DNA from: Trichoplax sp. H2
Lineage: Eukaryota
Length of the DNA stretch: 64,000 nucleotides
Direction of reading: 5' to 3'
Assembly (NCBI GenBank): GCA_003344405.1
Contig: NOWV01000156.1
Coordinates: forward strand, 62,001 to 126,000
The notes below the pieces were generated by a model. The model searched no databases, was not told the DNA's origin, and saw only the letters and a list, made by a program, of their open reading frames with translations. Both the position numbers and the translations under genes were made by a program. Within the stretch, counting starts at the first letter, position 1. Each line of letters opens with the position of its first letter. Positions 6,391 through 51,090 of this stretch are shown here, piece by piece.

Positions 6391-6610
6391 TGTACAGTGT
6401 ACAGTACATTCCAGTATCAGTGTACTGTACTGTACGTACCGTACTACGTACTGTACAGTACTGTACTGTATAGCACTACTTTACAGTACGGTACTATGGA
6501 CTGTGTACTGTATGTACTGTACTGTACTGTACAGTGCATGTTGCGTACAGTACAGTACTAGGGACTTGTCATTGATAAATCATACTCTACTGTACTGTAC
6601 TGTACAGTAC
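6391..6610. repeat. TACAG/CTGTA pentamer-family low-complexity array (GTAC-palindrome rich)
   Basis: Dense TGTAC/AGTAC/TACTG units in both orientations, in the formin-stonin divergent interval. Confidence 0.9.
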
Positions 6611-6775
6611 CTTAAAAATGGTCAAATTTCAAAATTGTAATAAAGAGAGACTACGATTTTGAAATTTGACCATTTTTTGGGTGTGATTTATCATTGAGAA
6701 GCCCCTGACTCTCTTTATGGCGATCTTGAAATTTGACCATATTTGGGGCATGATTTATCATTGAGAAGTCGCTGA
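6559..6775. repeat. Foldback cluster of a ~67-bp unit: one inverted copy and two direct copies
   Basis: Perfect 22-bp inverted repeat AAAAATGGTCAAATTTCAAAAT (6614-6635) / ATTTTGAAATTTGACCATTTTT (6656-6677). Direct copies start at ~6654 and ~6721 (CGAT.TTGAAATTTGACCAT.TTT.GGG..TGATTTATCATTGAGAAG). Confidence 0.85.
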
Positions 6776-7086
6776 TAGTAGAGTACAAATAAAATGTGAT
6801 GGTGATGGATAGACTTTTATTACGGTACCGCTGTACTCTGCAGTCATTTTGCAACGTCTAGTACAGTACAGTACCACGTAAGGCTGTCATAAGCATTGTT
6901 ACAGTGTTCATTTTATATTTATAAAGGTTGTTACTTTTAGAGTAAGGCAAATACTGAAATAACAAATTGATATCAAATTGTTGAATAGAGCAACTTTACA
7001 AAATGATATTTTACCCAACAGAAATGAATGATTGATAGAGACATTATACGGTTAGAGATCACCAGAAAATCTCCTTCTTGTGGTCG

Positions 7087-7305
7087 ATACTGTACAGTGT
7101 ACAGTACGTGAACATTGTATTGTACAGTACTATAGCCGAGTGCAATGCACACTCCCCCGCGACGAGTGACGTACAGTACTGTACAGTACAGTATCGCCAT
7201 TCCAAACGCTGTACTGTACTGTGCAGTACACGTACAGTACAGTACTGTACAGTACAAGAAAATTGCCTAGAGTACTGTACATCGTACAACTGTACTGTAC
7301 TGTAA
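7087..7305. repeat. Second TACAG/CTGTA pentamer-family array
   Basis: Same composition as 6391-6610. Both contain TGTACAGTGTACAGTAC at their left end (6391 and 7091). Confidence 0.9.
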
Positions 7306-8760
7306 ACGCTAGGCAAATCTGACGTGATACGTTAACGGTCGGCCTGCTGTCTAGCGTAATCATTTCAAAAAGTTTCATGTTATTTTTAAGACTTTTTGGA
7401 GTGTTGTGATAGCTTAACATTTTCAGCGTAAAGAATTACACAACAACTGGATAGTCTTGTTTCTACTTTGTAGTCGTCAAACCAACACTTATACAGTACA
7501 AAACAGTAACAGTGTAGGCGCTGCTGAGTGACGAAACGTAACATTATCCTCTTTGAGAGAGTAGAGCACTTTACAGTATAAACTCGTGATATTCCACATC
7601 ACCAAGGAACAATGATTGACTTCACTGCCTGAAAATGAACCGGTAAGAAATTCACCCAAAATCAAGCCTTGACTGCTGCTGTACTTGGCAAAGTAACAAA
7701 TTGAATTCACCAATTTTTTTCTTAGCCATTTTTTAACTTCTCGACCACCATAGAGAGATACGATAGAAATAATTTACTGTTCTTGTGCAACTGGATTTTA
7801 TGTCTACAATACTGGATGCGTCCATGTTCTAGCACGCACGTCGCGTTAACGTGATTGACGGTAAGGTCGAGTCATTCGCTTGATGCGTCATGTAATCGAA
7901 TCATCCGACATTGGCGTCATCTCTCCTCGATCATGCCTTGTCCTTGCTACAAAAAAATGGCTGCCACTTTGATCCAAGACTACTGTATATATCCATCTCT
8001 AGTGGATGAAATAGGTCGTCCATTTTAATTTTGTCTTTGAAAATAGCTGTCTACCACTTTGTCCTACGTTCATGACCATGAAGCCGACGTGTAGTATGCG
8101 ATCGGTATTACCAAAGTAAATTTTTTTCAACAAAGATTGAAATTTTACAAAGGCAATCTCTGTTGTTTCTACATCATCCAGCTAGCCAACGATGGCGACT
8201 TTATTAGGCGTTTATAAGGAACCTACATCAGATTTGTAGTTAGTTCAAGGATGGTTTCAAATGAGAAAAATTAGGGTCAGTGTTGTAGTCCTATTGTACG
8301 GTACAATGATGGCTAAAAGTTGGCCTGAAATCATGAACGACATCTGCAAACACTGGATAGGCTTAATCCTGCCTAAGTAGAGTTGATCATCGATAGAAAT
8401 CATCAATTGAGATCGATAACCTTTTGATCAGAACCTGATCAAAATGAGATGCTTTAAAGTGTTTTAAATACAAAAGCAATTGATGTTGAAACATGTTCAT
8501 TTGAGACCTTGTTCTCAACCTATTCTACTTTAACTATTTATAGGGCAAGCCTGTGAGGTCATTCTCCATTTCAAAGTCACTTTGGGCCACTAGGAAGACC
8601 ACTTGATCTGAATTGTACTCCTCAGCGGCCATCAAGGCTACTAACGCTAGCGATAGAGACGAGTGCTACCCATACGTTCTGTGGTCCAAACCTTACTAAA
8701 AGCAAATTATAAAGCAATTGATAATTAATCAGTATTTGACAAAAATCGAGAAATTGAATT

Positions 8761-11700
8761 ATGGCCGATGATCAAGCCAATGCAAATGTCCACCCTATCC
8801 AAGAAGGGATACCCGGAGACAAAGACGGTAAGCTTTCAATATTCAATACTATTAAATCGTATTTAGTCCAAATGGATGAATGACAGGAATGGATGCGAAT
8901 CAGTACTGCTGCTAAAGCGAGACGATAACATCTGACAATTTGGGCATTTCAACATCTTCTGTAAAGTGTAATAGTAATTTTGGACGATGGTAGAAGGGTT
9001 TTAATTCACCTAGATTTAGTTGTTTATGCGTTGACTCATGTACATACTGTAAATGTTAAGTATCCTTGTAAAAAAAATAGAAATGCCACTATTAGAACGT
9101 AGAATCTGAATCGATCTATTCCTGTCAACAGCCATCTTAACTTGATGACAAACTAAACAGTAGTACTGTACCGCGTATTACTTATGCTATTTTAGTTTTC
9201 GTGCAACGCTTAGATTAATCGATTTCAAATATCAATTTTTCTTGTTATTTTTCTCCGAACGTTACAGTACATGATCACTTTAACCAATTTGTTGTATCCA
9301 ACCATTGAGGTCTATTTTCAATAGCTTCATTATTGACTTCCTTCTTATAAGGTAGTACTTTTTATTCACAAAGCGATCGCTTCTAAACAAAGATGTCTTA
9401 TACCCCCAAAATTCAATTATATCATCTATGATAGCTTTAGATTCGATCACATCGCGTCGCTATCATTCTAGGTGCGAGAGTAAATAGACGAATTTATTTT
9501 ATGTTATCATTGAAAAAACTGTATCATGGCCAACTGTTATAAAATAATTAGACAAGGGGGGGGGGGGGTTAGTTACTGCAAACAGCAATAGTCGGCTTTT
9601 CCTTCACAACACTATTGATAATATTGATCACTATTTGCCCTAGCTTGTTGCACTAATATTGAAACGATAATCATTTTATCGGAAGGTTTTTAATTGATTA
9701 ATGTATCTCCACAATCGTGATTTCATTCGACCATTTTGATCTTAACCTTCCATTTCCCTCTATCATAGTAAACACCTAATCTTGAGTCAGCAATCGTTGG
9801 AAGTTAGTGTTGTACAACATTTTGAATGAATAAGAGTACAACTGTCGCTTTTACGCTCTTATCAATCATTAGTGAATCACTATGTACGAGTAAATCGTTG
9901 TTGTTGTGAATGAATCAAAAGGAAGAAAAATGACTTTATCCAACTACATCGTAGCTGCAGCAGTAAGTGAAAGTTATTGATTATATTATGCAGTATTATA
10001 ATCTCATCATACAGTATAATAAATACTTGGTAGCTTGTAGTAGCAGAGATTACTCAAAAAAAAGTAGACCTTGTAGTAGCCACTAATGTATAATTTAAAG
10101 AATAATGCCTTTACCAAGTAATTGTTGTAAACTTTCTCTTTTAATACCTATTGACAATAGTTACGTATATTTTCACAGTGAATTTTAAAAAAGTAGAAAA
10201 ACTGCTATTATTAATTCTAGTTTGATTAGTACACGATCAGCTATTATGTTAAGTTGTTTTCGAAAAGCAATGGCGTAAATGGTATTTAGTTTGTTGACAG
10301 TTGGTATAAGTAGTCATGTAACATTATAGAAGTAGCAATATTATTAGCCTGAAGGAATGTCGATATCAATCTCAATGTACATCAGTGTACTGTATTATTT
10401 CGTTGCTGTTGCACTGTCATTAAATGATCACTGTGGATTAATTGATCAGTACAGCATCGACTATAAGATGGATGTCTGCTGGAATTTGAAGTGTAACAAG
10501 GATCTACGTATTGTATTCTGCAATATGCAGTGCTGTACTATGTATATGTACTAATGTACAGCATATCTGCTACACGGTCTTTTTTACCCGATAATTCTAC
10601 TAGCTTTTTTTTTCTTGAATGATTATAATGAAGGCACCACTAAACTAGAAATAATGTGATCGGTACTTTCATTAAGATTACATAACAGCTGCTCTGTACG
10701 TGCGCGGTAATATCAGTAATGTTACAAACTACTATCGTGTTCAAGCATAAAAATAAAATGGGTAATGCTATGAAATTATTTTTTCATTGGTTCTTTCTTA
10801 ATAATGCGTACGTGTATACCTTTCTATTTGATCATGATATTTTTATTTGCTCATTTAATACGGGAATTAAACAACAAAATACTGTACAAACTATCTTTTA
10901 TGGCTATTGTAACTATTGTAATGTATAATATATTTACGGTTATCCGTATTGCTTTTCAGGTATCTGTTGTGGTTTGTCAATAGTGCTATCGAATTTAGTG
11001 ATGATAAAAGTACAAGTATAAATTAATTGTTTAGCAGTAATTTCTAGGTAGCAAGCGTACATATGCGTACTTTTTTAAAATTGTAAAAGATACAGCGTAT
11101 GTATAATTTGTAGAGAATATGATAACTTATCAAGTTCTCTAGACTGACAAAAACAAAAAGATATTTCTTAATAACCCTTAAGTTACTTTTTAATCTCAAG
11201 ATACATATATAAATATAGATCAGTTACATTCGTTGATCCTCACCTAAACAATGAAATTGCCTTATTAGCAGGGTTGATGTGGGTTGATATATTACAGACA
11301 ACACATATACTCATCTAGTGCTTTATACATCGCCATTAATGGTCATATTGGATGATAAAAATAATTGGTAAAATTTATGCTGTCAATGCCTAGAAGTTCG
11401 GCGGCTAGAATTATAGACATTTACGCGTATACTAAGCAGTATGTCATCTTTCACATTATCCAACTTGTGCAATGCCCTACACAACGTATAATACTTGTAT
11501 CACTCACTATCACTACCGTTATATCAACCAGACATGTTAATATCAATAGGAATTATGCAGCCTGGTTTAATTATGTTGCAATTGTTGAACAACTAAAAAA
11601 GATTAAATTAATAAAAATTATTATTAAAGTATCCATTTTGCTGTCGCTAAAATTTTTAAGCTTCAATATTTGGAATCAATGGCTTCATTTTGAAGGTATT

Positions 11701-14700
11701 ACGTTTTGACTTACCTGCTCTTACTGTTTTCAGATCAATCGAACGTAACAGAAAATCAAAGTGTTGATAACTTTGGTATTCCTTGGGATAATGCCGCTGA
11801 ATTATCAAAGTATGATTATTTTATTGAATTGGTTCGCGGATAACTGACAGAGTATTTATCTGCAAGACAATACTTATAAAAATTAATGTTGCGTGTCCAG
11901 TATATTAGCGAAAGTTTATATCCTTAAAACATTCAAAATAACGTGCCTAATTAATATCTTAAACTAGTGTAACTACAAGCTCCAACAGCCTGAAATTTAT
12001 TTCTAATCTCCTTGCAGGAAACTTGAAATTTTGGAAGGCAATGACAATAATAATCTCTATGACACCAATGCTAACACAAATACGATAATGAATAGCCAAG
12101 ATCATAAAGAATTAACCACTGGTGGACAGAAGAACGATATCAACCTGAAAACTCGGCAAGATGAAAATTTAGTAAAATCTAACGATGTAGCAGCATTTAC
12201 AGAAGGTACTGAAGTTTCCTATTCCGGAGTTATGGAGAATACGAATAATATAGTCCATGATGTAGACAAAGAGATAACAGACGTTACTGGACAGGAAATA
12301 ATAGATATAGGTAGGAAAAATTCTGTTTGTTAGAAGTTATTAGTATTTGATAATAAAATACTTCGTTGTTAGAATATTATATTGATACAATCAATATTCA
12401 TTTTCACTAGCTGATATAGATAAGAAACTGGAAAGTAACTTGACTGTTGAAGATGGTGAAGAAGAACGTCCTCAATTTTCTGATACAGAAAATAAATCAT
12501 TGTTTGCAAGCAAACCCGATTGGGAACCAAGTCGATTAATTGATGAAAATTCTAGCACAGTAAGTTCTAGTGACACTAGCCAGCAAGCTAGTAATCTAAA
12601 CCACGTCACAACACCAAGTGACAGCTCAAGTTCAAGATATATCGATAGTCCTGCCACTTTAGCTAAGACTGCAGTGTCACCTATTAATATTAGACCAAGT
12701 ACATCAAGCGTGTCATCAACATCATCAGTCTTTTCCGGACCAAATAAGCCTCAAAGTATTGATGACAAAGGTGCGAAAAGTGACAGCGTTGAAAAATCTA
12801 ATTTTACTCCTTTCGGGACAGCAAATACGGAGAAGATAACAACTAGCGAAGAGACTAATCCTCCTGCTAGCACCAAGGATGACTTTATGATATCTTACAA
12901 TGCAAGTACTGAACCACATGCTTCTTCTAGATGGGAACAATTTACTAATATGCTAGCGAATAAGATGGAAAGTGAATCTTTAGTTTCTGGCAGAATTACT
13001 AATGAAAGAAAATCAGATGTACAGACTTTTAATAAAAATTGGGTGACCTTTGATGATGATGATACATCGGGAGCTTCAGTAATTGCATCCCGAACGGGTT
13101 TGAATCGCAGAAATACTACAGTAGGTGTTTCAACGCCTTCAACAATATTTAAAAATCCTTTTTCTCCCGCTGAAAAGCCGACTGCTATTACATCAACCAA
13201 TCCTTTTTCAGCAAATAAAGTCAGATCTAATACTTTGGATCCACAGCGTGAAAGTAATTTTCGAAGACATAGTGCGAATCCTTTTTCATTTTCCGATAGT
13301 ACAGTCATTGAAGAGCCTAGTAATGTCTCACTCGCTGTCGTAACGAGTAGTGCGAGTCAAGATAATGCTACCTTTTTTGCGGACTTTACTACTGTTACAG
13401 CCCATATCAATTCTAATACAGCGACTGCCATGGCTATTACTGTAAATGAAAGCAATTCTACAGATACTACTAGTAAAAACAAGGCTGCTACGCCTGTCGA
13501 TAAGAATCTGGTAGATAATCCATTGGCAAAACCCGAAAACGCCTATAATAGCAATGTTGCTCTCGCTTCACGTCCAGTCAATGATGACATCACGACGGAT
13601 ACTGAGGACGAGATAGGAGACAACGAATGCGAAGTTGTTCCATTTTACGAATCGTCCTTGAAACGTTTCTACATGTTATTGCGTGTCCCTGAAAAGAAAA
13701 GAAAAGTAAGAAGCAGAAGATGGAAAAAGGTTATTGTTGGCTTAGAAGGGCCGAAAGTTAAACTATATGACATTGGGGTTGCATCTCCATATACAGAAGT
13801 ATCGTTGCAAGGTTGCTGTTGCCTTACCAAACCAAAATTTGGTAGACATGAACGTGGCTTAGTCCATGTTGTTAAGCTTAGGCTGATTAGCTACAAGGAA
13901 ATACGTCGGATATCTGGCAAGTTTGAAAAAGTTTTACGTAAGACTACAATATTCAAGTTTGGCGCTACTTCTTACGCAACACTAATAGAATTTATGCAGA
14001 CTGTCCAAAGTACTTTATTTCAAATGCCAGAGTACCGTTCGGTAGGTATCACTTATCAAAAGGAGAAAATGACTATAGATGTGTTAGATGAGTGTAGAAT
14101 TTGGCTATCAACTGATGGCAACCCATTTTATAGTAGTACAACGGTACGTATTACTGCTTTGGCTTTTGTCTCTGGTATGACGCCTTGTACTATAGAATTA
14201 AATGATAAAAAAGCTATGAAAAAATTAAGTCACGATGAAAGCGGAACCGGAAAATCTATTGCTGCCATGTCAAAAGATGAATTAGCTAATTTAACATCAA
14301 TTCGTAGCAACAAAAGTTGGATCCGTTTAAAAAATTGTCAATTTCATTGTTGCGTCGATAGGAAAACTTATTTCAAAAATGCTATCATCGAATTCAAGCC
14401 TGTCGATGGAAGCGAATTTCAGTTGATGCGTTTTGAAATACCCCAGTCTAGACCGTTTGAAGCGAGGTATCCTCCAGTTGGTACCAAAACTGCAGACATT
14501 ACTTCCGTACTGCCAATAATTGCTACCGTTGAATTACAAAATGATGACCATCACGTACAAGTTACTGCTTCCATCAAGCTACCAGAAAATACGAATCCAT
14601 TGTCCAGCACCAGGAAGAATGTTCGATTGGTTATACCAATACCACCAGATTGGAGACCGTTATTTAGTGATCAAAAAGCTGTAGTTAAAGGAAGGCAAGT

Positions 14701-15163
14701 TCAGCCACTTAAGGTTATAACAAATAGGAATTCAACTATTTCACATAATTTAGGAAGAAATGTAAAAACTGTTGTTGCCATTAATGGGGGTAGCGTTAAG
14801 CATAGGGCAGAATTTGGTGGGTTAGTCTGGGATATTGGCACAATTTCTTTAACACAAAGTAAATCACCAACAAAATATAAGCTGGTATGCCAAACATCGT
14901 TGCTACCATCAATGGAATTACCTAACGATTATGGTGATCCACCGCGAGCCCTACTTGAATTTAGTATTCCGTATTCATACGCATCTGGAATTATCGTTAG
15001 ATCTGTTAAAATTGGACAGAAGCAGCTACTGGAGAATTGTATATCGTACACTTCCCATTATAGTTATTTTATTGATATGCAAACAAATCATTATTCAATC
15101 GACGGTGATAATGTTCCACCGTTTACGAAGCGCACCATCGATCATGGCTGTGTGCAACAATAA
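8761..15163 (+). CDS. STON: Stonin (stoned-B/STON1/STON2 family) endocytic adaptor. Proposed exons 8761-8827, 11734-11809, 12018-12310, 12411-15163.
   Basis: The exons join in phase with GT-AG sites (MADDQANANVHPIQEGIPGDKD|DQSNVTENQ...). The Ser/Thr-rich N-terminus has WEQF and WVTFDDD motifs and three NPF motifs. A stonin-homology region (MLLRVPEKKRKVRSRRWKKV) is followed by a mu-homology domain (LAFVSGMTPCTIELND, WIRLKNCQFHCCVD, IEFKPVDGSEFQLMRF, YASGIIVRSV). Confidence 0.92.
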
Positions 15164-17069: not shown

Positions 17070-20000
17070 TCATTTAATCATCGCATTAGTAACCGGCTTA
17101 ATGATACCGTATTCTTTGTCAAAACTTTGGCAGATAAACAGCGATTGATCAGAATTACCATTTAATCTCCAAATCTTAATATATGGTGACTGAATGACCT
17201 GGACTAGCTTTAGTGTTAATTTATTATAAAAATAAATTTTACATGTCAGCTTTTCGATGACCACCAAAAATTGATATGGCCATAAATTTTCAATATAATT
17301 AATATCAGCTTTAAATACAGCTGTAGCATCTCGGTAGCCCTTCATTAGAATTCGACCATTAAGAGTGAACATCTAAAATGTGAATAAGAAAGATACACTA
17401 TCAGAGAATTGAATTACTGATCATTAGTTAATTTTATGTTTAGTTAATACTTATATCTACAGAATGATCAACTAGACATTGAAGTATTCATAATGGACCG
17501 TTATGTCTTCTTCTTTGACTAGAAGATAGCATTCTTTATTTCCCTGGCAATAATTAATCTAAAGATAATCCATTTGATAAATTAAACTTCTGACGACAAT
17601 TTAATCATTACTATTCAAAAAATAGAAAATTTTAATTATCATGAATAATGGAATTAAAAGTTGTCACTACTTACAAAGCTATCGGTATCACTTTGCCCAA
17701 AAGTATCAATCATGGAATCCTTTTTCCATGCTGATGTAACGATATTTAGATCGCTGGTCATTTCATTAATAGGAAGGGATATTTTGCAGGCTATTCCATC
17801 ATTTTTGTCATATTGATACGGTTTCATTAATTGTATGTCAGTTAAAGCCTGACCGATTTTATAATGCTACATTTTTGGAAAGCAAGTACATCATGAAAAA
17901 TAAGAGGAGAAACGTTAAGGAAGTACGCTGTCATAGCATAGCTCTAATAGTAGCTCCAATTCATATAACAATTATACAAAGTGCATTCATTACCTTGATG
18001 ATACTTTGACTGTTGTTTAATGATATTTGATGAGTAACAAGATTACCATCATCAAAATGGAGAATATTCAAATCTCGATAAAATTCACTTTCGGTATCTC
18101 TGTAGACTTTTAGATCGCAGGTATGGTAATTTATTTTCATAATTATGATTTGTTGACAATCATTTAGATACTGAGTGTGTATGCATATATCCATGAATAA
18201 AGAAAAAGCAAGCTGTTACTTTGGTTAGTATTGCAAAGACGTTCTCGAATATATTTTTGACGTCTATAATGATATTTCTATTTATATGAACCTTATCAAT
18301 GAAATGAATTTTAAGCCAATTTAATGAACTTAGCAGGTATCGAATCATTTATAAACGGTCAATTTGATAGAATGTATCTCAGACTCGTTACGGTATAAAT
18401 AATGACGACTGATTACGATTAATCAAGTTTACCACAACTCCCTAATCAAATATTGAGAATAAATTAAAGCATAATTAAATGTATTTACCCTAGCTTGAAG
18501 TATAAAAATCAAACTTTTATCGAATTTTCTGAATCTCGACTTTACTATCCATATATTATGAGGCTTTTCAGGTAAAATATATTTGATTTCTTGCATCCGT
18601 TTCATTGCGTAAAAGATTCCGTAGAGCAACTGTAAGATAGAATGATATTCAAATTCACTAATAGATAATCTGCAAATTTATACTCGTATATTAACAGTCT
18701 TTCTACTAACACTTACAAATGATTGCTACCGATTAAATGGCATTATCATTTTGTTAAATTATATTCATATCTTCATTACTAGCACGATAGAATGAGCTTG
18801 TCCAATTTTTACTACTCTAATTATGTCAAATTAATTTGATTAAACGCTAAATTTATAATTTCTGAACGCTATGTAAATTAAATATTAAACTGCTCTAATG
18901 TTGTGACGTTGATCAAATTATCATCTAGATGATATCTCCAGGATACCAGGAACAATAAGTCACAAATGCAAGTAAAATAGGGATGATAGTCGTACCGCAC
19001 ATTTTCTAATTACCTTGCTGAAGATAATATGCCAGTGATCTGTTGGACAATCTTTTATGCAATCGTTACAATCACATTCGTATATTTGTACTAGGATAAC
19101 TGCCTCCATATCATCATGTAGGATACATTGCTTGTAATTTTGTTTTAATTTATATTCCGAAATTAGCTTAAAATTCTCTCCTCGATAGATCTATTAGTAT
19201 ATAAATATATATACATACACATATAAACAGAATATACAAGTTAAATTCATCCACAATTGAGCATTTTACCGAATAACAGCTACGCGTATTTTGAAAGCTC
19301 ACCCTTAATTTGGAATTTTTATACCGTTTGTTTATTACCAATTGGACTGCATGGGGAATATTATTTATAAATGCATGATTAGAATAAGCTATCAATTCCT
19401 CATTGTAATTTAGCTTTTGCTGATCTTGGATCAATGTTGCGGATGATATAGGCTGCCAGCTTAGATCTTTTGCTATTACAAAAATGAGTGAATATAATAA
19501 GATAATCGAATCGCAGTGGGATTAAGGGTAATTAAGACATTAACAATTAAATCTAATACCTTGCAAATCATAACGATATAATCTAGAAGGTGGTATTGGA
19601 TCATAAATGAATAGATGATAACTATCAGGTATAAACATTAAATCCCGATAATATTGTATACAATCAATGGATGTAAAGGCGCTAAAATTCCGAGAGGCTA
19701 ATTTAAACACCTAAAATAAGCAAGAACAGAACATCAATTGGATACGTATAATAGCCGATTTACGAATCTGATCTCTTACAAAGGCATAATACTTGTAGTA
19801 GAATAAACTAACCTTTAATTGTTCACCTTGGGTGTGCACAGCAATAAATTGATGATCATCAGATGTTACAATATCATTAATACTTTTATCACATAGGTAG
19901 ATTGGTTGAAAAGAACGAGCAAATTCTTTGACAAAATCATGTCTGCCATTAGTAATATTATGTAAGGCTATGTAACCCAAAATGTGTTGATAAGCAGCGA

Positions 20001-32379: not shown

Positions 32380-32979
32380 AACTTGAAGATTTCAGTCTAA
32401 CAATCAATTCTACAACGACGCGTATGTCACATCCGTCGACCAAGATTTCAGTCTTGTACTGCGAGGCTTTTCATCTATAATGTCTACTCCAGTAACCGAG
32501 TATTATACATGTACAAATTAGGAAGAAGTTTGACAATGATGTTATCCTCTATAAGTAGATCAATTTCTATTTTAGAACGATCACGAATTAGCATGACAAA
32601 GAGTGAAGATACAAGGTTATATAGAAAGTGCCCAAAGTACATTGCCTTACTGCTAAGGCATGGACGACCGACTGCAAATTGTTGGAAATTTGGAGTAGTC
32701 AGTCCATCATCGCTAGGGAATAATACAGCTGTATTGTACATATACCACTGTTGTAAAATTGCCTTACAAGCAACGTAGACGATTCAAGTTTATCCTCTTG
32801 CCTATCTGACAAACTTACTTATTTGTTATGGCTTCTTGGAGGTGTTGATTCAATTGGAGAGTTTAGTTTAGTCTATGCAAGCAATGGCCATCCATTCCAT
32901 CCATTCAATGTGGAGCGTGCACCATCTCTTCCACTGCTCTTGCGTGCTTCAATTACTCCTATCCCGACCGGGTGTGTGG

Positions 32980-33720
32980 TGTTACAGTACAGCCCAGTTG
33001 AGTACAGTACAAAATACTGTGTATTACAGTACACTGTAATGATGAGTTGACTGCACCATGGCCAAGCATAGCAGATTTCATTACGCTGTACTGTACACTG
33101 TACAGTAAACGTGCTGACATACTGTACAGTATACCAAATTTCAGAAGCAAGTTGCAAAACACTGCAATACGGTAGATGACACTTTCACCAGTAGAGTAGA
33201 AATTAAGTAGAATGATCAGAAAGAGGATTAAAAGCCTGCTTAATGCCCATGTTGGTGACCCATTTTACTCACTCGCTGGATGGTTCTTTTTTTACTGCAG
33301 GTCGTGCCATTGGAGGGTCTGTGCCGTACAGTGTACAGTACAGGACTGGACGTACTAATACTGTAATCGCCAGGCAAAGTACTGTAATCGCACGTGGAGT
33401 GAGAACCCTTGCAACTGAGTCTAGTGCCCAATGTTAGCCAATGTCAACAGTATATTACTATACGGTACATACTGTACCGCTGTATCTGCAAGTCAAGCGA
33501 GTCTTTCACACGTCGAATCAGCCACATACAGGTACTGTACTCACTGAGTGTACTGTACTGTACTCTAGAGTCTAGTACAGTACTATACACTGTACTGAAC
33601 GTACTGTACACTGTAGTCAGTGTACTGTCACAGTCGGGGGAAAACGACCATACTGTTCGCCCTATCGTCCACCAATACTGTGCCTACCCTACTCTACGGC
33701 ACTCAGTGTACTGTACGGAG
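32980..33720. repeat. TACAG/CTGTA pentamer-family arrays (sub-blocks ~32980-33132 and ~33325-33717)
   Basis: Same motif family as at 6.4-7.3 kb. Contains GTACAGTGTACAGTAC at 33326 and its reverse complement at 33088. Confidence 0.88.
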
Positions 33721-33968
33721 GTTGAACCATCTGCGACTGACCGTAGTGCAGTTGAATTAACCTTGATTGAAGTCGGGCATTGAAGCCAAAAAGAGGAGAA
33801 AAAGAGCTACAGTTGGCAGCTTGGCGTTGGAGAGATTTACCAGCATAAAATCCTCTTTCCTTTTCTACTCATTGACTTATTTTAAGCACTATCAAGAAAG
33901 AATTCTTGCATTGCTGATAGTTATTGCCGCTTATCTTCTTGTTGGTACTTTATATTCATCGGTGCAAA

Positions 33969-39900: not shown

Positions 39901-41611
39901 TTTCGACCAGATTTTAAGAATTTATGATGAAATGGTAGAGAAGTCTGTAAGGTTAGTAGTAAATGTTCAGTATTTTGTATTGCATCTAGAAGTATATTTT
40001 TTGTAATGTTGGAATTTACACTAAATTTAGACCGATTTCTGCGGCTATTCATATGATAATTACGGCCCTACAACGGGCTGGGCGTGGAGACGAAGCAGCA
40101 GCATTGCAGTAAGTAAATTGGAGAAGGTACAATTAAGCTGATATTATGATAAACTAGAAGTAAATACAACTATGGAAATTCAATTCATAGATCTATTGAA
40201 AGTGAAAGTAAAGATATTATGACAATGAATGTGTATGTTGAAGCTGCGGCGTCACAGATGAATATTGAAGGTAAAATTTTTATAGTCCGTTACAAGTAAC
40301 AATTGTACTTGAATCGAATCGGGTATAAAGGGTACAGATTGAGGATAAAAATTAATTGACATAATATCTACGTTAACAGCTGCTTTGGAAAAATTAGCTG
40401 AGGTTAAAGCCGCAGGGAACACTCCTTTACCATTTGCTTATACATCTTTGTTGAAAGCCTACAGAAATCGAGGTGAAGCACAATATACAAATTTGCTTCT
40501 GCAAATTTATTATCCTTCAATGTTAAATTTCTGAACTGGAAATGCAATGAAGTAAAGCAATTATCAATATTTGATAATAGGTGATTGTGAAAATGCTTAT
40601 AAGTTGTACTTGGAAATGAAAGACTTACAAGTAGAAATACCAAAGATATGTTTCGTTATTTTGATTGGATTATTCGCTGAAAGGTGCATTAATATAATAA
40701 TAAATAACATGATATTACTAAATCCGTTATGTAATATTTGTAATGCTATTACTACACTTTGCAGTCGAAACCTTGATCGAGCAAAAGAGATTCTTGACTG
40801 TGCTTTGGCTGAAAACAAAGTACCATATGTTAGGTCTTTCGAGCAGATGATAACGTTAGCTATTTCTAAAAATGATCAAGATACTGCTAATGCATGTAAG
40901 TGACGATCACTACTGCTCAATTTAATTCGTATATTACAAGTTCTTAAGTTCTAACATTGTGCTATTTGTAGTTGTTAAGGATATGCGGAGAATTTTTGAT
41001 ATCGATTATAATGAAATGCAAGAAATATTGTTAGCTTCCAATTTAGCTGCAAACCAAGTGGCAGTTGCTGATAATTATTACAAGGTTAATAGGACTAAGC
41101 AATGATAGTTATATAATCGCTTATCGTTGATATCATAAATGATTATGTGAGTATTAAGTATGATAAAATATTTTTAATTCTCTATCTGTATTAGTATTTG
41201 AAGGGCGAAAATTCCAGTCGTTTAATCACTCGATTTAAAGCGATAGCTAAAACTTGTGTGAGAACCAATAACTTAGAAATATTACAAACGCTTCAAGAGT
41301 TTACTAAACGTCATCATGTTCCTTTGGATCAATCCTATCTTAACGAAGGGCTACTCCTTGTTTATAGTATGATATTTTGCTAAATATTGCTTTATCCAAT
41401 TTTTATCTGTAATGCAAACGATAAGTAGCAGATGTTGATTAAAGTTCTAATTTTCTTTTCTTGATAAGGCAATAAAAATGATGTTAACCAAGGAATCGAA
41501 TTATACAAGAACATGAAGAATTCCAATGCAGTGGTTTCTGAAAGATTCACTACACTACTACATTCGCTGTTACAAAGAAATGATATGGATATTTCTGAAG
41601 TTGTAGACTAG
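33969..41611 (+). CDS. LRPPRC: Leucine-rich PPR-motif-containing mitochondrial RNA-binding protein (LRPPRC ortholog), about 30 short exons
   Basis: The Arg/Ser-rich N-terminus lacks acidic residues, like a mitochondrial presequence (MWRVSTRFLMQRPVVFNARN). Exons give IIRNCGERLRDVKPEQRIELVHQFW, FNVNHYNELLTVY..FSPIEFLSSMRAKNVSPDK, TYINILQAYGIQGDIKAA and SESVYAALITGHARA, which match the LRPPRC N-terminal PPRs. Stop TAG at 41609-41611. Confidence 0.92.
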
Positions 41612-43442
41612 TCATGAAAAACGACATCGTTTGCACTTGTTATCCAAGTTATTCCAATAATTAATTTAACATCAATCTAAAATTGTTTCATATCATAGCC
41701 TTATTGGCGATAAAAATCATGATATTATAAACAATGAATTTTATATCAAATATTTGGCGAAAAAATTGATATGGATATCGTATTAGAGCTGCAATTGCTT
41801 TAGGATTGAATACCACAAAATAACATTTGTTCTATAATTGCTTGTTGGTGCGACAAGCATAGAATCAGCCACTTATGATGTACTAGCTCAGTTATATTAT
41901 AATTATTAGCGATATTACATATGAATAGGTTGTAAAGGAATGGAAGCCTGAATTGCTGCTAATTAATTTTTCTTAATCTTAGATTATTAGATTCTTATTT
42001 TAAGCAAATTTTAGATCGCTTCATTTACCAATAATAGCAGTAATTTTATTGTATGATATCTGCATTTATTCAGCATGTTAAATACTTAGATACCTATATT
42101 AAAGATTATATTAAATTCTTAATCGGAGATTACTGTACTGTGCACGGTACAGCATCAATTTGATGTATAACTGTTGAATGAGTATTACTGACTATTCTGG
42201 TGATGATGTTAGATGCTCGTATATTAGCTGTTAGTCCTTAGTGTGCTAGCGTGCCACAACATTGAATATCTTCTCATTTCGTGCATATTCTACGTAAAAG
42301 CTGTTGCCAGTAGCACTTGGCTAAGAATACCTATCGCTGAATGGGCATTAACTATTCAAATTACTGATATATTATAATAATTGAAATGTATCAAGATTGG
42401 GTTAAAGAACTGTACAGTCGCTATTGAAGCTAGATAGTAACTCGAAATTGATTTCACAGTCGGAATATTATGAGAAATGCAGTATCCCTCCAAGAACTAC
42501 CGTTATTGTGGTTGGCTGTGGCATTATTTGCCGTAGTAATCCACATCGAAACCTGTTGTAACTTGTGCTAATTATAGCGATATGTATGTCACATTAGAGA
42601 TTTGCTTAATTTTAATAACTCAAATTTCCAAGAATCGAAGAAGATTCTAAACCCATTCATTACCAAGCCTAGGATGATCATGATTTTATCCTAACTGAAT
42701 TCGCTATGACAGGCGTGCTAAGTGTTGCCAAGGTATAATTATATTATCGACAGTATGGTGATAAACTCTTTGGGCTTTATTTTATATGTGATCATATACA
42801 ACATAAATGGATTGAGGTGTGCCAAAATGTAAACAAGGTAACAACACAGTATTATGGTATGTCAATTACATACAAATACACAACTTCGTATAAACATTTT
42901 ACAACTGCAGAGCAGTATATTGATTAATTATCAATACTTCAAAGAATAGGCAAGAAATAGTATTAGTGACCGTATTATTGAAATTATATGATTACGATCA
43001 CAGTTTTAAAAATTAAGTCCATTTTTTAAACTCAAAATTCTTATAACGTAGCTCTTCAGTAATGCATCATTCCTGATTTGGTTTCATAAGGTGCGGTAAC
43101 ACTAGAAAGCCAAATGGCATAAGGCGATATTAAATGATCGTATCATCACAGTTATAATCTACGGCTGACATTTTCTTCGTAAGCTGTTTTGAATTATATT
43201 ACGATTTTTAACGGATATTTCGTAGTTACAATCATTAAAAACTTTTTAATCGAATAATTGATTAACTAGACTTATGTCTACATTTTTTTTACCCAACAAT
43301 GGGAAAAATCAAATGACAAAGTAAAAGTACTTATAGTAATAATAGTTTAACACGTAGACATCCCTTATCCATACTCATGTCTTGCTTTAAAAGTATCGCT
43401 TGGATTTTCAAATTCTTAAGATATAGCATCTAATAGCTCAAT

Positions 43443-44937
43443 AACTTTTCTTTTTAGCGCAAAGCACTGAGTAAAAACAATGCACTCTTTTTTTAGACTG
43501 TACATGATATCAATAATAGAATAGAAAAGATGTGGTTAGCTGAGCTAGGTAACAATTAATTTTTTATAAACTAACAGAATTTACAAGTTTTAAAAGTTGA
43601 TTCCACTTTATACAATGACTCCTATGAGATTATCAAATAGTTAAAAACGCTAAAGTTACCTGCACTGCTAATAATTTCGTATCCGTCTTCAATCTTTACC
43701 GAATGGCGTTGGCTATCAGTTGAAGTCTCAGGTACAGGCATCCTTCCAACAAATCCTGCACGCCTAGTGAAAATAGATGACAACAGTTGATTTAAAGCAA
43801 TACAGCTTGTTATCGTCGAGTAAATTCTTTTCAGTGTAGACTATATGTTAATGATATACGATGAAGTAAATCTATTCATACAATCTGGTCAAAGTACTGA
43901 CGAGTGTCAACTGTTATTGTCGTATCAACGAAATCATATTAATACTTTTTTAAATCTGTGGTAAAATGTAACTAGTTGGTATATGTAAATTTTGACTTAC
44001 ATTGGTCTTCTTGCACTTTTGTGGCGACGATGTGTATTTACTTTTGTGGGAGTTAAGTTACCAATTTGTTGGCCCAAGCGTAAAAACGCTGGTTCTGCAT
44101 TCTCATTGTTAAACATAGAAGGAACTGCAATTCCAAATATGTAAGANNNNNNNNNNNNNNNNNNNNAACTTTTCTTTTTAGCGCAAAGCACTGAGTAAAA
44201 TCAATGCACTCTTTTTTTAGACTGTACATGATATCAATAATAGAATAGAAAAGATGTGGTTAGCTGAGCTAGGTAACAATTAATTTTTTATAAACTAACA
44301 GATTTTATAAGTTCTAAAAGTTGATTCCACTTTATACAATGACTCCTATGAGATTATCAAATAGTTAAAAACGCTAAAGTTACCTGCACTGCTAATAATT
44401 TCGTATCCGTCTTCAATCTTTACCGAATGGCGTTGGCTATCAGTTGAAGTCTCAGGTACAGGCATCCTTCCAACAAATCCTGCACGCCTAGTGAAAATAG
44501 ATGACAACAGTTGATTTAAAGCAATACAGCTTGTTATCGTCGAGTAAATTCTTTTCAGTGTAGACTATATCTTCCGGAGGCGTGCAAATATTGTAAATCA
44601 ACTCTATCCATGTATCAATTCGATTAGGTATCACAATTGTTAATGATACACGATGAGGTAAATCTATTCATACAATCTGGTCAAAGTACTGACGAGTGTC
44701 AACTGTTATTGTCGTATCAACGAAATCATATTAATACTTTATTAAATCTGTGGTAAAATGTAACTAGTTGGTATATGTAAATTTTGACTTACATTGGTCT
44801 TCTTGCACTTTTGTGGCGACGATGTGTATTTACTTTTGTGGGAGTTAAGTTACCAATTTGTTGGCCCAAGCGTAAAAACGCTGGTTCTGCATTCTCATTG
44901 TTAAACATAGAAGGAACTGCAATTCCAAATATGTAAG
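43443..44937. repeat. Near-identical direct duplication (43443-44146 vs 44167-44937) on either side of a 20-N gap; probable allelic assembly artefact
   Basis: Both copies abut the gap (44147-44166). They differ by a few SNPs and a 68-bp indel (44571-44638). They duplicate the last RhoGAP exons. Confidence 0.9.
44147..44166. other. Assembly gap (20 N)
   Basis: Run of n characters. Confidence 1.
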
Positions 44938-47610
44938 ATATTAATCTATAGATATACTACAATAATTGTAAGGAATTCCATTATAATTACTATTATGATT
45001 AAAATAATATCGACATTATAATATATTATCTAGTACATAAAACCAAGCATGCCTTTGAACAGTAACTAACGTTGCTGTATCTGCGGAAATTTGGACGAAC
45101 GACCACGCAGCTTTGACGTCATCGATACATAAGGACTGTGTATACGTTGCATGACTGAAGCAGCACGCCTACAATAATAGCAATGATTCCAAATAGTATG
45201 AAATCAGAGTTCATATATGAAAAGCTTAAAAATCAGTTGGCTCCAATCAGCCACAGTAAAATTTAGAGATATAAGCATAATGCAGCACAAACTTTTTCGT
45301 TGCTTTCATCATGTTGCTGTTATCATGTTTTCTTTTTAATCCTTGAGCTGAATCCAACAATGGAGAGGAACATGCTTCGGAATTGAAACTAACTACAGGG
45401 CCAACGACCGAATTGGTAGCATTATCGTCCTTTAAGGCCTTTAGAAAGTCTGGTGATATAGCCTGTCTCGATTTAGCTTTAGTAGTAATTATCAAGTGTA
45501 AGTCAATCTTGATTTGAAAAGGCTTAGGAAATATCTTCGTACTGTAGTAATTATTTCTATTATCCTTTATTGACGCTAAAACTGCACAGTCAACTAAGTT
45601 GTAATAGCTGAATTATTAGTAACTAGTCCATACGGTAGGTCAAGTTTTGTTCCGTAGTCTTACATTTTTTGTTATGAGGATCAATACCAGCCCTGCATAG
45701 ACGAGCATTCGATGATCGAGTTCTTAAACGACGTTTGCTCTTCTTTTGATCTATGATAAATTTTAGTAATACACATATGTAAGCATTAAAGAGCGTTGAT
45801 TTTGAATCAAATAAATGATATATTCCGACTGACGCTCTATTTAGTGAATACTGTATTATTTGCAATTTATTAAGCAGTCGTATGAAGGCAGTTGTCTAGT
45901 AAGTACTAACAATAGCATAATACTTACTACTAAATTTATTCATTGCAAATTTGTCATCATTGGGCAACAAAGTGAATTTATCTTTAAGTTGTTGGATATC
46001 TTCCAGTACGTCAGATGGTATAAAGCCAATTTTATCGGCATTATCGATTAAAGTTTTTATGATGGTTGTTTGTAATGATAGTAAATCGCTATTATCATCA
46101 TTATTGCTGACGTCAGGCATTAAACTTGGCGTTAAAACTAGTGCTAAGTTATTACTATCCATTTGATTTTGATCGGATTGAGTAGCAACATCTTTCAGAA
46201 ATTTCATAATATAATGCAAAACGTTTAAGTTATCCCGTGGAAATAACAAGCACAGTAATAATATTGTCATTTGATGCAGACGACTTGCTTTCATTGAAGC
46301 ACATTGTAAAAGTGCTTCATGAAATTCGTGAGGCATTACAGGAAAGGACAAGGAACGTAGAAATTGCTTCCATAACGTAGCAATATCATGCACATTAGCA
46401 TCTTCACTCCAATCCTGGTTAACTTTACCGATTTGTGCCTAGTACGTTGTTGTAGTATTTTGAAGCATAATTTAATTTTACGAAGAGATTACGAATTGAA
46501 TTAAACATCGCTTTTAGCTATTTACCAGTAGTATTTTTTGTCGTGAACGTGATCCAGATTTTCTGAACAGGCCTTCTGTGTGAAGATGTCTTCGTAGAAA
46601 TTCACTTGTTTGATGTAAAAAGCTGTTGGGAAACATTGCAGTATAGAATTGATTAGATTGATTCGATTAAAGTTGCATATATCAGCGTCTAATTATTTAA
46701 ACAGAAATTGTTAGAAACTAATATTATAAATTAGCTACAATCGTGTTATTATGCTACACTGGTAGTTTATTTAACTGCTGATATGATTTCCTGATATGCA
46801 ACAGTTGCATTAACTAATTTGATAATGTAGTGAATTCTAGTGACATGATAGGTGAGGTATTGGTCCCACTTTCTAGAGAGATGTACGTAATACAACATGT
46901 AGAGCGTTAGAATAACTAAGACAGACAGATGATTTTGACGGTCATTAGTACATGTATATCTATATCTCGTTAACTTTATAAAGTACTAACAAATTTTTGG
47001 AGGTCTATTCGTGTTAACTATATAAAGCATACGACACGTAAAGGAATAATGAAAACTGCGATTGTTGTAGGAGTAGCATTTGATTGCGTCATTCTATGCA
47101 TTAAAGTAGTTGCCGATAATTAATTCTTTATTTCTAAAATGCTGCAGTTACTTACGTTGGAATGGCATAGTGTTCCGTTTGATTATCTTGCTTGTATGGG
47201 ACCAATGTTGCTGGCAATCCTAAAACTGAAGCAGGGTTGTCTTGGCTATGATTCTACAATAATAAACGATACGCGAATCATGACAAATGCTTAGCAGTCA
47301 AAATAGACTATACAATCACTTCTTGCTGTTTTTAAATACACTGTATCAAGGTTAATAAGATAGAGTAATAGGGGTTGTCCGTTTATAGAAGCTTTCATTT
47401 GTAGGTCATGGACTTTAGATAGAAATCTGACTAACATGGCTACATCGTGTTCAGTTGGTGTACTTTATGCTACTTACGAGTAGGTTATCTTGCCACTTTA
47501 TCCTACTTATAATTCTAACTATTAACCTTGAAGCAATCGAATAGGATTGATCGATAACTATTTCTATTGTTTGACAGCTCCTTTGATGGAAGTATGGCAG
47601 GGATGCGCAT
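44217..47610 (-). CDS. ARHGAP11A: Rho GTPase-activating protein, ARHGAP11A-like. Multi-exon; both ends approximate.
   Basis: Exons read SVLGLPATLVPY...YAIPT|FLHQTSEFLRRHLHTEGLFRKSGS (arginine finger intact), HDIATLWKQFLRSL, NQMDSNNLALVLTPSL and LQTTIIKTLIDNADKIGFIPSDVLE. The HTEGLFRKSGS, MDSxNLA and TLIDxAxxIGxxP pattern is ARHGAP11A-like. A basic low-complexity C-tail follows. Confidence 0.85.
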
Positions 47611-49565
47611 CTACCGATAGTGTGGTATAGGCTTGTTATGTTGGTAGATTGTAAAATCTAGAAAGCTTCTTCTATTGCTTAAGGAATGGGATCAAGATAG
47701 CAATGTATCTGTCTGTATGTTAACTGTCTTTCTTGGCGATCATTGTTACAGAGGATTTACATCCGTTACATGCAAAGCATAGCAGGATCGACTATAAAAT
47801 ACGGCACAGCCTGTTTGGATGGCTCTGACAAGCTAATACAACGCTTTCAAAGTGTTTGTACTAATTCACTTACCCTATTAGCTTGGATTACACCATCGGG
47901 TACTTTAATTCGACGGCTACACAATAATTGACGTATGACGATGTAAGCATGATCTCGATTATCCATACTAAATATTAGTGATGCCATGGTTCAGGTTGAT
48001 GATTTTCAATAGGTACTTGTAGGTGACTAACGTGCAATGTCTTGATCTTGGAGAAAGTGTAAGTTGATGTGTGCTTTTAAGCTTGTCTTCCACTCTCTAT
48101 TCTATCAGGTTACTGTAATAATAATGAATCTTTTAGCTTGAATCAATCTTCTATCTTATACCAGTCGTTGCCAATGCAAATCTAGTCTCAGTCTTTGTAA
48201 TGTAATGTTGGTCAAGGTTGTTGCTTTGTAGAAGGCTTTCAAGTCTCTGTGATCCCACTTGGTCACACAATCCGCTTGTCGTCGTCGTCGACAACAGTGT
48301 TACTCGATGAAGTATTTTTCTCCACCGACAACGATAAAATTACCTCGTAGTCTACCTGCCCCCAAAAAACATATTACAATAATTTATTTGTCTGGTTATT
48401 TGTAGTTAGGTTAAAGCTATGCATTGAAAATCAAGTTGAAAGGACGCCATGGACAACGAGCCCAAGGCATGATTGCCATGGCTGTATGCGTTGCTTTGGT
48501 TGGCCAAAGAGAACCGAGCATAACCAAGCTCATTTTTGAACCTTACCTGCTTTCTTTTTTAGCCAATCGACGACTACAACACACCAGGCTAGGTAAATTA
48601 CTTGCAAAAATCAATCTAAAACTGGATTGCTTTCCCTTATTAGGCTAAATTGGCAACCAATGTAAGAAAATCAAAGGGATTCAAAGAGAGAGAGAAAAAA
48701 AAATTGTGTAAAATTTCACTGGCTGGCAATGACTCTGTCTGCAGCTTGCTGAACCGTTCACCAGTGAAAATCCTTATGGAGCGCTGCAGAGGTTGTTTAC
48801 AATTTAGACTCTTTGCAGTCCATGGTCGAAGACAAAGCGATGGTGTGTAGCACTGTAGCTTGACTCAGTCGTTGTTGACGCGTACTGTCCAATTGACCTG
48901 ACAGAAAAACGTTTGCAAACGTTGACACTCGAGTCCGACTTTAAACTGCCGCTTGCAAATTCAAATAGTGTGACGTCACAATAGGTTGTTCACCACTCAG
49001 TGAATGAAGTTGGACCTGCGCACAACCATCATTGGGACTGGATGACAAGCAGCGGCTTGACGTCAACTCCAGTAAACATCCAAGTAGAATAAAGCTGTTG
49101 TAAAGCATTTCGCACAACATGGCGAAAGAGTGAATTCAAGTCAACTAAAATCAAGTCCAAAATGATGCACTCTACTGTCAACCATTGCCGTGGCCAACTA
49201 TTACAGTATACTGTACAGTTTTAGTGATAGCCTATCGTAGAATGAGGAGAAAAAAGAGTCAGTCAGTCAGTCTCGGTACTCTTTTGAAGTGAACGCCCGT
49301 TAAAGTAATTTACTTGCCTTGAACGGGGACGAACACTACAGTAAGTACATTAAAGAATCAACAATAGTACAAAGAGAGGGGCAGGAAAGGATTCTTCATC
49401 ATAGTAAAAATGTGCAGCCGAATATTTGACTGGTCATTTTAACTGTATTGCATGTCAAGAAAGACTGAAAAAATGATAGTGCCAAGCGTAGACTAGTAGA
49501 GGTATCTACAACTCTATGATAACTAAGAGAGAATTTGTCTTTGGCCTCGACATTCCAGTACTGTG

Positions 49566-49629
49566 CAGGGTGTCCGGAAAGTCTGGACACATCTTATTTA
49601 GTTCTGTATGACAGATGCGTCCAAACTTT
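49566..49629. mobile_element. Possible Tc1/mariner-type TIR relic (tiny MITE-like foldback)
   Basis: CAGGGTGTCCGGAAAGTCTGGACACATC resembles mariner-type termini. AAAGTCTGGACACATC (49578-49593) pairs 14/16 with GATGCGTCCAAACTTT (49614-49629). The right end is truncated and there is no TA target site. Confidence 0.4.
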
Positions 49630-50245
49630 ATTTCTAAATTTTGTATGCAGTAAGATCATGTTCTGGAGATTTTAATATCGCAAACAGCAATATTCTGAGA
49701 CGTTCCTAGGTCTCTATATTTCAACGTCTACTAGAGACTGAGAGTATAGTACAGTAATGTATTGAAAGTAACAGTATTTTGCAGTCAACAGCCACTTGTA
49801 GTCACTCTCTTTCTTGTCAATATTGCTTAGCCATCCTTGAATTTGGTATGATTCATAAGCAATTGAACGCATGAAAACGTTCTCCGTCGTCAGATGGAAT
49901 TGCAAACACAGAAAGGCACCTACAGCCACAATCAAAGCTCTCACTTGAGTCTCTTGGCTGTGCCATCTGACAATTTGCCCATCTGCTGCAAAAATCCAAC
50001 TCGGTATTTACGATGACATTCAGTGGAAAGCACCAGCGCGTATGGAGTTGAGCAGCTCATTTTGAGCAACAACCGTGGACGACCATAGTGTACCCATTGC
50101 AGATGTACAAAACACTTGAAATGACCAGCAACATACGCCATTCTCAGTACTATATCATTGCATATAGAAACCAACAACAATCACTGTCTCTCGCTGCATC
50201 TTTGTATACTGTCAGGTCTAATACGGTGTTTGTATGACATAGACA

Positions 50246-50815
50246 AGTTCAGTTTAGTTTAGTTTAGTTTAGTATAGTTTAGTTTAGTTTAGTATAGTTT
50301 AGTTTAGTTTAGTTTAGTATAGTTTAGTTTAGTTTAGTATAGTTTAGTTTAGTTTAGTTTAGTATAGTTTAGTTCAGTTCAGTTTAGTTCAGTATAGTTT
50401 AGTATAGTTTAGTTTAGTGCAGTTTAGTTCAGTTCAGTTTAGTTTAGTTTAGTTCAGTTTAGTTCAGTTCAGTGCAGTTTAGTTTAGTTTAGTTCAGTTT
50501 AGTTCAGTTCAGTGCAGTTTAGTTTAGTCTAGTTTAGTTTAGTTTAGTCTAGTTTAGTTTAGTTTAGTTTAGTTTAGTTCAGTTCAGTTTAGTTCAGTTT
50601 AGTGTAGTTCAGTTCAGTTCAGTTTAGTTCAGTTCAGTGCAGTTCAGTGCAGTGTAGTTCAGTTCCGTGCAGTTCAGTTCCGTGCAGTTCAGTTCAGTTC
50701 AGTGTAGTTCAGTTCAGTTCAGTGTAGTTCAGTTCAGTGTAGTTCAGTTCAGTACAGTGCAGTTCAGTGCAGTGCAGTTCAGTTCAGTTCAGTTCAGTTC
50801 AGTACTGTACAGTGC
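50246..50815. repeat. Pentanucleotide satellite, ~114 in-phase AGTNY units (AGTTT/AGTAT/AGTTC/AGTGC/AGTGT/AGTAC)
   Basis: The 5-bp phase is unbroken over 570 bp. Confidence 0.97.
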
Positions 50816-50894
50816 GATATGGATCAGCGCGGACCAGTCCAGTGCGGTACGGTTCAGAGCGGTTCGATCTGGATGGTGTTGATATGGTTGGCAC

Positions 50895-51090
50895 TACTGT
50901 CAGCTCTAATACTGTGTTTGTATGACCTAGACAAGTTCAGTTTAGTTTAGTTCAGTACAGTGCGATCTGGACCAGCGCGGACCAGTGCAGTTCGGCACGG
51001 GACAGTACGGTTTGGCGCGGTTCAGTGCAGCGCGGTAAGGTTCGGTACCGTTCAATACGGTCCAGTAGAGTACCGTACGGTACAGTATAG
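50895..51090. repeat. Second, short copy of the head + pentamer array + degenerate tail unit that begins at 50207
   Basis: TACTGTCAG.TCTAATAC.GTGTTTGTATGAC.TAGACAAGTTCAGTTTAGTTTAG occurs at 50207 and 50895. Both tails share GTACAGTGCGAT.TGGA.CAGCGCGGACCAGT.CAGT.CGG.ACGG. Confidence 0.88.

Follow-up and report, generated by a model that had tools for sequence, protein, structure and literature searches.

Long arrays of pentamers related to ACAGT occupy intervals between divergently transcribed genes in a 64,000-bp stretch of Trichoplax sp. H2 DNA (positions 62,001-126,000 of contig NOWV01000156.1, equal to G000:C193:62001-126000, in an assembly of 94.9 Mb; "the window" below means this whole stretch, and bare positions refer to it). 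Arrays of this kind mark the 5' ends of genes, with one chance per promoter whichever direction the neighboring gene points, and do not mark divergent pairs as such. The repeat and its bias toward promoters are already known from published work (Wang et al. 2010, PMC2871265), and the orientation test described below and a unique tract at one of the window's loci are modest additions to it.

Arrays and genes of the window

The arrays of the window are as follows:

6391-7305, no strand: array 1, ACAGT-type tracts in mixed orientation, built of TA-CAG-TA and TA-CTG-TA modules, with the formin-like gene on one side and the stonin-like gene on the other
32980-33720, no strand: array 2, less compact ACAGT-type tracts in mixed orientation, with a small minus-strand gene on one side and the PPR (LRPPRC-like) gene on the other
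50246-50803, plus strand: array 3a, an (AGTTT/AGTTC)n expansion on a single strand, specific to this locus and distinct from the ACAGT arrays present across the genome
50804-51090, no strand: array 3b, a short degenerate GTAC/ACGG-type pentamer tail directly upstream of the mTERF gene

Array 1 contains 54 GTAC tetramers and 28 copies of GTAC[AT]GTAC (14 per orientation), and array 2 contains 28 and 9, respectively. The whole window has 41 copies of GTAC[AT]GTAC, against a mean of 0.42 and a maximum of 2 in 50 dinucleotide-preserving simulations; 38 of them lie inside the three divergent intervals and the other three are at 9163, 15652 and 35159. At all three sites the nearest coding exons are on the minus strand to the left and the plus strand to the right, as a preliminary description of this DNA had stated, and its observation that only isolated copies occur elsewhere also agrees with the counts (1, 0 and 0 in the convergent intervals and 0 upstream of the CARD/NB-ARC gene). 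Its further claim, that dense arrays of one repeat family are present at all three sites, stands for arrays 1 and 2, whose unit is a rotation of the unit of the Trichoplax (ACAGT)n microsatellite, but not for most of array 3, which we largely rejected as a member of that family. Array 3a is a one-strand microsatellite of 111.6 copies with 45 AGTTT, 39 AGTTC and a single GTAC; its unit is not a rotation of ACAGT, and runs of six consecutive AGTTY units occur at this locus only in the entire genome (13 of 13 matches). Positions 50246-51090 together hold one GTAC[AT]GTAC and two GTAC[CG]GTAC, and array 3a is flanked by a 58-bp local duplication (50207-50264 and 50895-50952, the second copy inside array 3b). 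Most of array 3 is a local expansion of the ordinary slippage kind, and arrays 1 and 2, with the array 3 tail, belong to the (ACAGT)n promoter repeat already known from Trichoplax. Because array 3a grades from left to right through AGTTT, AGTTC, AGTGC and AGTAC, it may derive from an AGTAC unit, to judge from its sequence.

The genes around the arrays are:

1-5854, minus strand: formin-like gene with a poly-proline exon; FH2 matches are weak and under the Pfam cut-off; extends past the left window edge
8761-15163, plus strand: stonin-like gene (coding span of the model) with an adaptor medium-subunit domain (Pfam)
17070-28998, minus strand: CARD/NB-ARC (APAF1-like) gene (Pfam), with a spliced RNA contig to 28998; a tandem promoter without an upstream array
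30463-31666, minus strand: small gene without a Pfam match; RNA contig end at 30463, modelled 5' end provisional
33790-42060, plus strand: PPR-repeat (LRPPRC-like) gene, a single spliced RNA contig with weak PPR matches
42761-47987, minus strand: RhoGAP gene (Pfam), from the RNA contig end to the modelled start codon
51142-52305, plus strand: mTERF gene (Pfam), its protein 98% identical to Trichoplax adhaerens TRIADDRAFT_51541
54192-64000, minus strand: TBC/GRAM (TBC1D9-like) gene (Pfam), its start codon about 2.3 kb past the window edge

This layout, as proposed earlier, is supported by Pfam matches to adaptor medium-subunit, CARD plus NB-ARC, RhoGAP, mTERF and TBC plus GRAM domains and by weak ones to FH2 and PPR; the names stonin, APAF1, LRPPRC and TBC1D9 are presumptive, being taken in part from the preliminary description and not output of the domain search. 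RNA contig ends cannot prove a transcription start, and with this proviso the PPR gene contig has its 5' end at 33790, which is 70 bp beyond the end of array 2, and the CARD/NB-ARC gene contig has its own at 28998, where there is no array. Array 1 and the first coding exon of the stonin-like gene are 1.45 kb apart, and the modelled RhoGAP start (the start codon of the model, not a mapped transcription start) is 2.26 kb away from array 3.

Gene orientation and promoter position

A self-trained ab initio gene finder was built on 856 kb including the window (792 kb lie beyond it), namely C193:1-176000, C2:80001-360000 (picked after array positions had been seen) and C519:1-400000 (blind), and gave 116 models. 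Twelve of the 15 RNA joints examined (of 49) coincide exactly with model introns, and 45 of 97 longest exons match Pfam on the predicted strand, one of them spuriously (5 of 102, already scanned, were left out). With an array defined as at least three GTAC[AT]GTAC within 500 bp, arrays are present in 27 of 40 divergent, 12 of 33 tandem and 0 of 40 convergent intervals when all 113 intervals are counted, and in 24 of 35, 10 of 26 and 2 of 35, respectively, when only models scoring at least 40 are used. We also corrected the set: one misplaced array 1 copy at G000:C193:53.6-54.1 kb was dropped (which lowers the divergent count from 26 to 25), the start of one model was changed, and a merged model was divided in two. 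Outside the window, the corrected set has arrays in 25 of 37 divergent intervals, in 13 of 32 tandem ones and in 0 of 37 convergent ones (divergent versus tandem, p=0.03; tandem versus convergent, p=9e-6). The freedom of convergent intervals from arrays, noted earlier for the window, thus holds well beyond it.

Arrays are more frequent in divergent intervals, but are they specific to them? The idea that they are fails, both on the 13 array-bearing tandem intervals and on the divergent rate itself, which fits two independent promoters: a per-promoter model with the tandem rate of 0.41 predicts arrays in 65% of divergent intervals, and 68% is observed (p=0.86). On this model, divergent pairs look special only because each has two promoters. 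Among tandem intervals of at most 3.5 kb, 9 of 17 have arrays, and 12 of the 37 divergent intervals have none; hit density is 3.8 hits/kb in divergent versus 1.2 in tandem intervals. Six array-bearing tandem intervals are flanked by different Pfam families (importin to SWIRM, DEAD to CHCH, Pecanex to MRP-S23, ACOX to MORN, IBN_N to RING and TPR to Vts1), five of the six without an assembly gap. None of 41 opposite-strand open reading frames in seven array-bearing tandem intervals had a Pfam match, which is weak evidence (the scan covered 72 of the 85 listed references).

A fourth divergent pair with an array lies beside the window. The apparent 5' end of the TBC gene inside the window had been considered as an array-less promoter, wrongly: the real start codon is past the window edge and is followed by a dense array and then by a divergent MINDY gene. 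A GACTGTA-type 7-bp relative of the repeat is present in expanded tandem duplications directly upstream of the TBC start (L018:2490-3500, G000:C193:128.5-129.5 kb), where it creates a 296-aa (amino acid) open reading frame that misled gene prediction and matched SlyX spuriously. Gene orientation in the 856 kb alternates beyond random (40 divergent, 40 convergent and 33 tandem intervals, with about half tandem expected), an excess to which merged tandem models may contribute.

The position of the repeat is that of a promoter mark. TAC[AT]GTA words are within 1 kb upstream of a predicted ATG in 32% of cases versus 7.8% for a control 7-mer; the signal spreads broadly over the 0-3 kb upstream of 99 predicted start codons and has no sense/antisense bias relative to the gene. 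Exons contain 2 hits in 182 kb and introns 97 in 282 kb. When genes were classed by Pfam family, at least three copies were found in the 3 kb upstream of 29 of 36 core-machinery genes versus 1 of 12 receptor, channel, secreted or regulator genes, and of 6 of the 11 unclassed genes. The suggestion in the preliminary description that the repeat marks promoters of broadly used genes is thus borne out, by the published record (PMC2871265), by the 0 of 37 convergent intervals and by the fourth divergent pair. Wang et al. (PMC2871265) found that ACAGT makes up 78% of 7233 pentanucleotide repeats in Trichoplax adhaerens, that 54% of ACAGT repeats lie no more than 1 kb upstream of genes and 85% no more than 5 kb, and that they are enriched at translation and protein-modification genes, and proposed a possible factor-binding site. 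Our arrays share with theirs the pentamer, the genus, the position upstream of genes and the translation-gene enrichment; they counted perfect runs with no null and did not test orientation or mixed strands, whereas here orientation, strand mixing and turnover between haplotypes are included.

Two further candidates were considered. An ACGG variant was tried as a tier closer to the transcription start, as suggested by two of four loci, and found no support (median distance to the ATG 1192 versus 1077 bp, p=0.69). No tRNA gene was found by ARAGORN (bacterial code) in the 56 of 80 stretches of array regions, all beyond the window, that were scanned; at L099:1-490 and 1010-1480, beside an ACGG-type tract, there are tandem units of about 120-155 bp with apparent partial tRNA 3' halves.

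Structure and turnover of the arrays

The exact ACAGT 19-mer has 2604 matches genome-wide (1304 forward and 1300 reverse, overlaps counted), where its control has 0 and the exact ACGGT 19-mer has 28. The array unit is best described as a chain of the 7-bp self-complementary word TAC[A/T]GTA overlapping every 5 bp, or half a helical turn, with no strand preference. The preliminary description took this spacing as possibly suited to a multimeric binder or to nucleosome exclusion. At the central position of GTAC-N-GTAC, A occurs 395, T 409, G 23 and C 19 times, and this large excess of A and T over G and C indicates that the symmetric A/T form is favored over the transition product. Neighboring modules keep their orientation 326 times and switch it 244 times, which differs from plain slippage arrays such as array 3a, and perfect inverted arms of 14 bp, separated by 80 bp or more, are present in 32 of 44 arrays.

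Eight near-identical pairs of arrays, array 1 among them, lie by assembly gaps, and we infer that they are two haplotypes. Over 3196 aligned bases they show 73 substitutions and 36 indels. The length of 18 of the 36 is a multiple of 5, and among 8 clean 5-bp indels 4 are anchored at TA without duplicating the neighboring unit. Array copy number thus changes in 5-bp steps between these haplotypes. The array 1 partner is a 553-bp gap-flanked copy of window 6306-6856 at G000:C193:53586-54138 (L002), 15 kb away, which differs mainly by indels of 5, 17 and 57 bp within tracts and is likely the other haplotype. At several other arrays the assembly places two copies in tandem on either side of an N gap and so makes them too large; breaks in the assembly are thus frequent at array loci.

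Array 1 is interrupted by one further feature:

6559-6774, no strand: degenerate low-copy miniature inverted-repeat element of 216 bp, inserted in array 1, with ends (C/T)AGGG...CCCTG

Its family has 17 matches to the 16-nt end motif at about 9 loci, and the best copy (L103) has a 7-bp target duplication, with a near-match in L106. By superfamily rules, the element is presumably more like P or hAT than mariner or Mutator. It was considered as a TA-duplicating mariner that writes footprints, with ends that often follow TA-CAG, and rejected on the 7-bp duplication of the best copy. Copies at L103, L106, L109 and L118 belong to the family; several copies adjoin ACAGT arrays, and of four isolated end-like motifs in the 856 kb three adjoin arrays.

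Other repeats in the window lie at its genes. A 77-bp direct repeat (two copies, 5829-5987) overlaps the modelled first exon of the formin-like gene. A RhoGAP stretch of about 724 bp with two exons is doubled around an N gap at 44147 (43443-44938), probably an assembly duplicate rather than an exon duplication. Tandem repeats of 119 and 203 bp, up to 99% alike, are present in a TBC gene intron (62417-63400), and short segments at 31900-31941 and 42587-42628, common to many genomic places, represent a small dispersed repeat.

Function and origin of the arrays

Why are such arrays at promoters? We favor, with a probability of about 0.6, the reading that they are an orientation-free, per-promoter tag of broadly used genes that is turned over and is kept for chromatin opening or insulation and for the docking of a factor. 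Their position, symmetry and turnover were measured directly (above), and the function is proposed from the parts of PMC12221973 and PMC12817080 used here. Slippage and microhomology deletion at the GTAC cores would turn the arrays over, and fold-back switching may also contribute. Arrays would persist at active promoters where many two-fold symmetric TAC[AT]GTA sites keep chromatin open or insulated, and arrays of such symmetric sites could dock a factor that clusters these promoters. A chromatin role is plausible in our analysis because repeated ACAGT and ACGG motifs emerged from a model of Trichoplax three-dimensional folding (PMC12817080).

The placozoan loop-hub paper with a transposon-linked motif, mentioned in the preliminary description, does exist: Kim et al. 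(2025, PMC12221973) describe, in the parts used here, promoter hubs, a loop-anchor motif at housekeeping (GP1) genes, and Mutator terminal repeats identified by EDTA. Their GP1 motif is found at the promoters of housekeeping genes, which make up about a third of genes, and not at those of cell-type genes, which fits our class split. It differs in that PMC12817080 describes it as repeated ACGG, and in that no Mutator body was seen at the arrays compared here. In PMC12817080, as far as it was used, repeating ACGG and ACAGT motifs emerged de novo from the Chimaera Hi-C model, in which they predict how the T. adhaerens genome folds; its ACAGT motif corresponds to our repeat, although as a model prediction only. 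Because PMC12817080 equates the transposon loop motif with repeated ACGG and lists ACAGT separately, identity of the window arrays with the loop-anchor motif of PMC12221973 is not established. A literature search on Trichoplax and TACAGTAC gave no match, one on Trichoplax and ACAGT gave only PMC2871265 and PMC12817080 as relevant among the matches listed, and neither a gene-orientation test nor a footprint claim for placozoans was among the matches listed.

Several points count against the per-promoter tag. Arrays vary strongly between the inferred haplotypes, which fits weak constraint. Divergent intervals remain richer in arrays than tandem ones (p=0.03), and the models are ab initio, so that missed antisense or non-coding genes in tandem intervals are possible. 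The gene classes behind the 29 of 36 versus 1 of 12 split were assigned from Pfam family after the data had been seen, not blind, and paired genes share arrays. Finally, 7 of the 36 core-machinery genes have fewer than three copies in the 3 kb upstream (PheRS, GIY-YIG and BRE 0 each; ACOX, DEAD, the window RhoGAP and the window mTERF 1 each).

An unlikely but substantial alternative is that arrays are neutral scars that pile up in open promoter DNA without function, for example as stacked Tc1/mariner excision footprints, in which a TA is turned into TA-CAG-TA or TA-CTG-TA, or as repair and template-switch products. TACAGTA and TACTGTA are both canonical Sleeping Beauty footprints (10.1101/659086, as far as used here), identical to the array 7-mers in both orientations; the arrays differ in stacking these 7-mers by the thousand and in that no matching TA-CAG-ended transposon was found. 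TA-[CAG|CTG]-TA is enriched 31x inside arrays, TA-[CAGTG|CACTG]-TA 83x and TA-[CAGTC|GACTG]-TA 13x, but minor Sleeping Beauty footprints such as TA-CA-TA are not (0.8x). The mixture of kept and switched module orientations (326 and 244) accords with footprints, as do the four TA-anchored, non-duplicative 5-bp indels among the eight clean ones (unpolarised); deletion between GTAC microhomologies of 4 bp would explain the latter equally well, there being no outgroup to polarise these indels. Searches for a writer argue against this alternative to the extent that they were informative: the genome contains no transposon with TA-CAG ends that we could find (these searches score best candidates only), DDE_3 is matched at two loci without convincing terminal repeats, the Transposase_1 search gave no match but neither did its control, so it is uninformative, and the array 1 element duplicated 7 bp, not TA, in its best copy.

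One of the DDE_3 loci, L121:895-1971, is an intact 358-aa open reading frame without convincing terminal repeats. Its first catalytic acid seems to be replaced, as judged by eye against the expected motif. From its sequence it is possibly a domesticated transposase-derived DNA binder. In a bolder and improbable variant of the scar idea, stacked Tc1-type excision scars would have been recruited as a multivalent docking code that serves promoter hubs in either orientation, and its reader might be a domesticated transposase, for which L121 would be a candidate; if this were true, many placozoan loop-anchor "Mutator terminal repeats" would be self-complementary arrays mis-called by a structure-based finder.

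It is very unlikely that the arrays are Mutator relics, that is, decayed terminal inverted repeats of elements inserted at active promoters. Mutator (MuDR) elements have long terminal repeats, 9-11 bp target duplications and a body common to the loci of a family. In BLAST comparison of the window arrays with a few other array loci, only pentamer tracts or the small non-Mutator element matched, with no common non-repeat body. The proposal was made for the loop-anchor motif in PMC12221973, which reports, in the parts used here, that in four placozoans GP1 promoters contain Mutator insertions whose terminal repeats include the motif, the repeats being annotated with EDTA alone; a structure-based finder could call the inverted arms present in 32 of 44 arrays terminal repeats. 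PMC12817080 moreover links the transposon to ACGG, the minor form here (28 versus 2604 exact 19-mers).

We give the least credence to the strong form of the preliminary description, a dedicated mark of divergent (bidirectional) promoter pairs, since the higher divergent rate (25 of 37; 3.8 versus 1.2 hits/kb), the two-fold symmetric motif and the TBC/MINDY pair accord with it, but arrays are in 13 of 32 tandem intervals (9 of 17 of the short ones), six of these have different Pfam families on either side, opposite-strand reading frames there gave 0 of 41 Pfam matches (weak evidence), and 12 of 37 divergent intervals have no array.

A mark that is counted per promoter and not per divergent pair narrows the tests that need to be made, and natural haplotypes that differ in array size make allele-specific tests possible in an animal with few genetic tools. 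Because the arrays form inverted arms by themselves, the published Mutator link deserves to be re-checked. PMC12221973, in the parts used here, names no placozoan clustering factor, and the arrays offer a sharper handle on what marks or clusters housekeeping promoters in an animal without CTCF.

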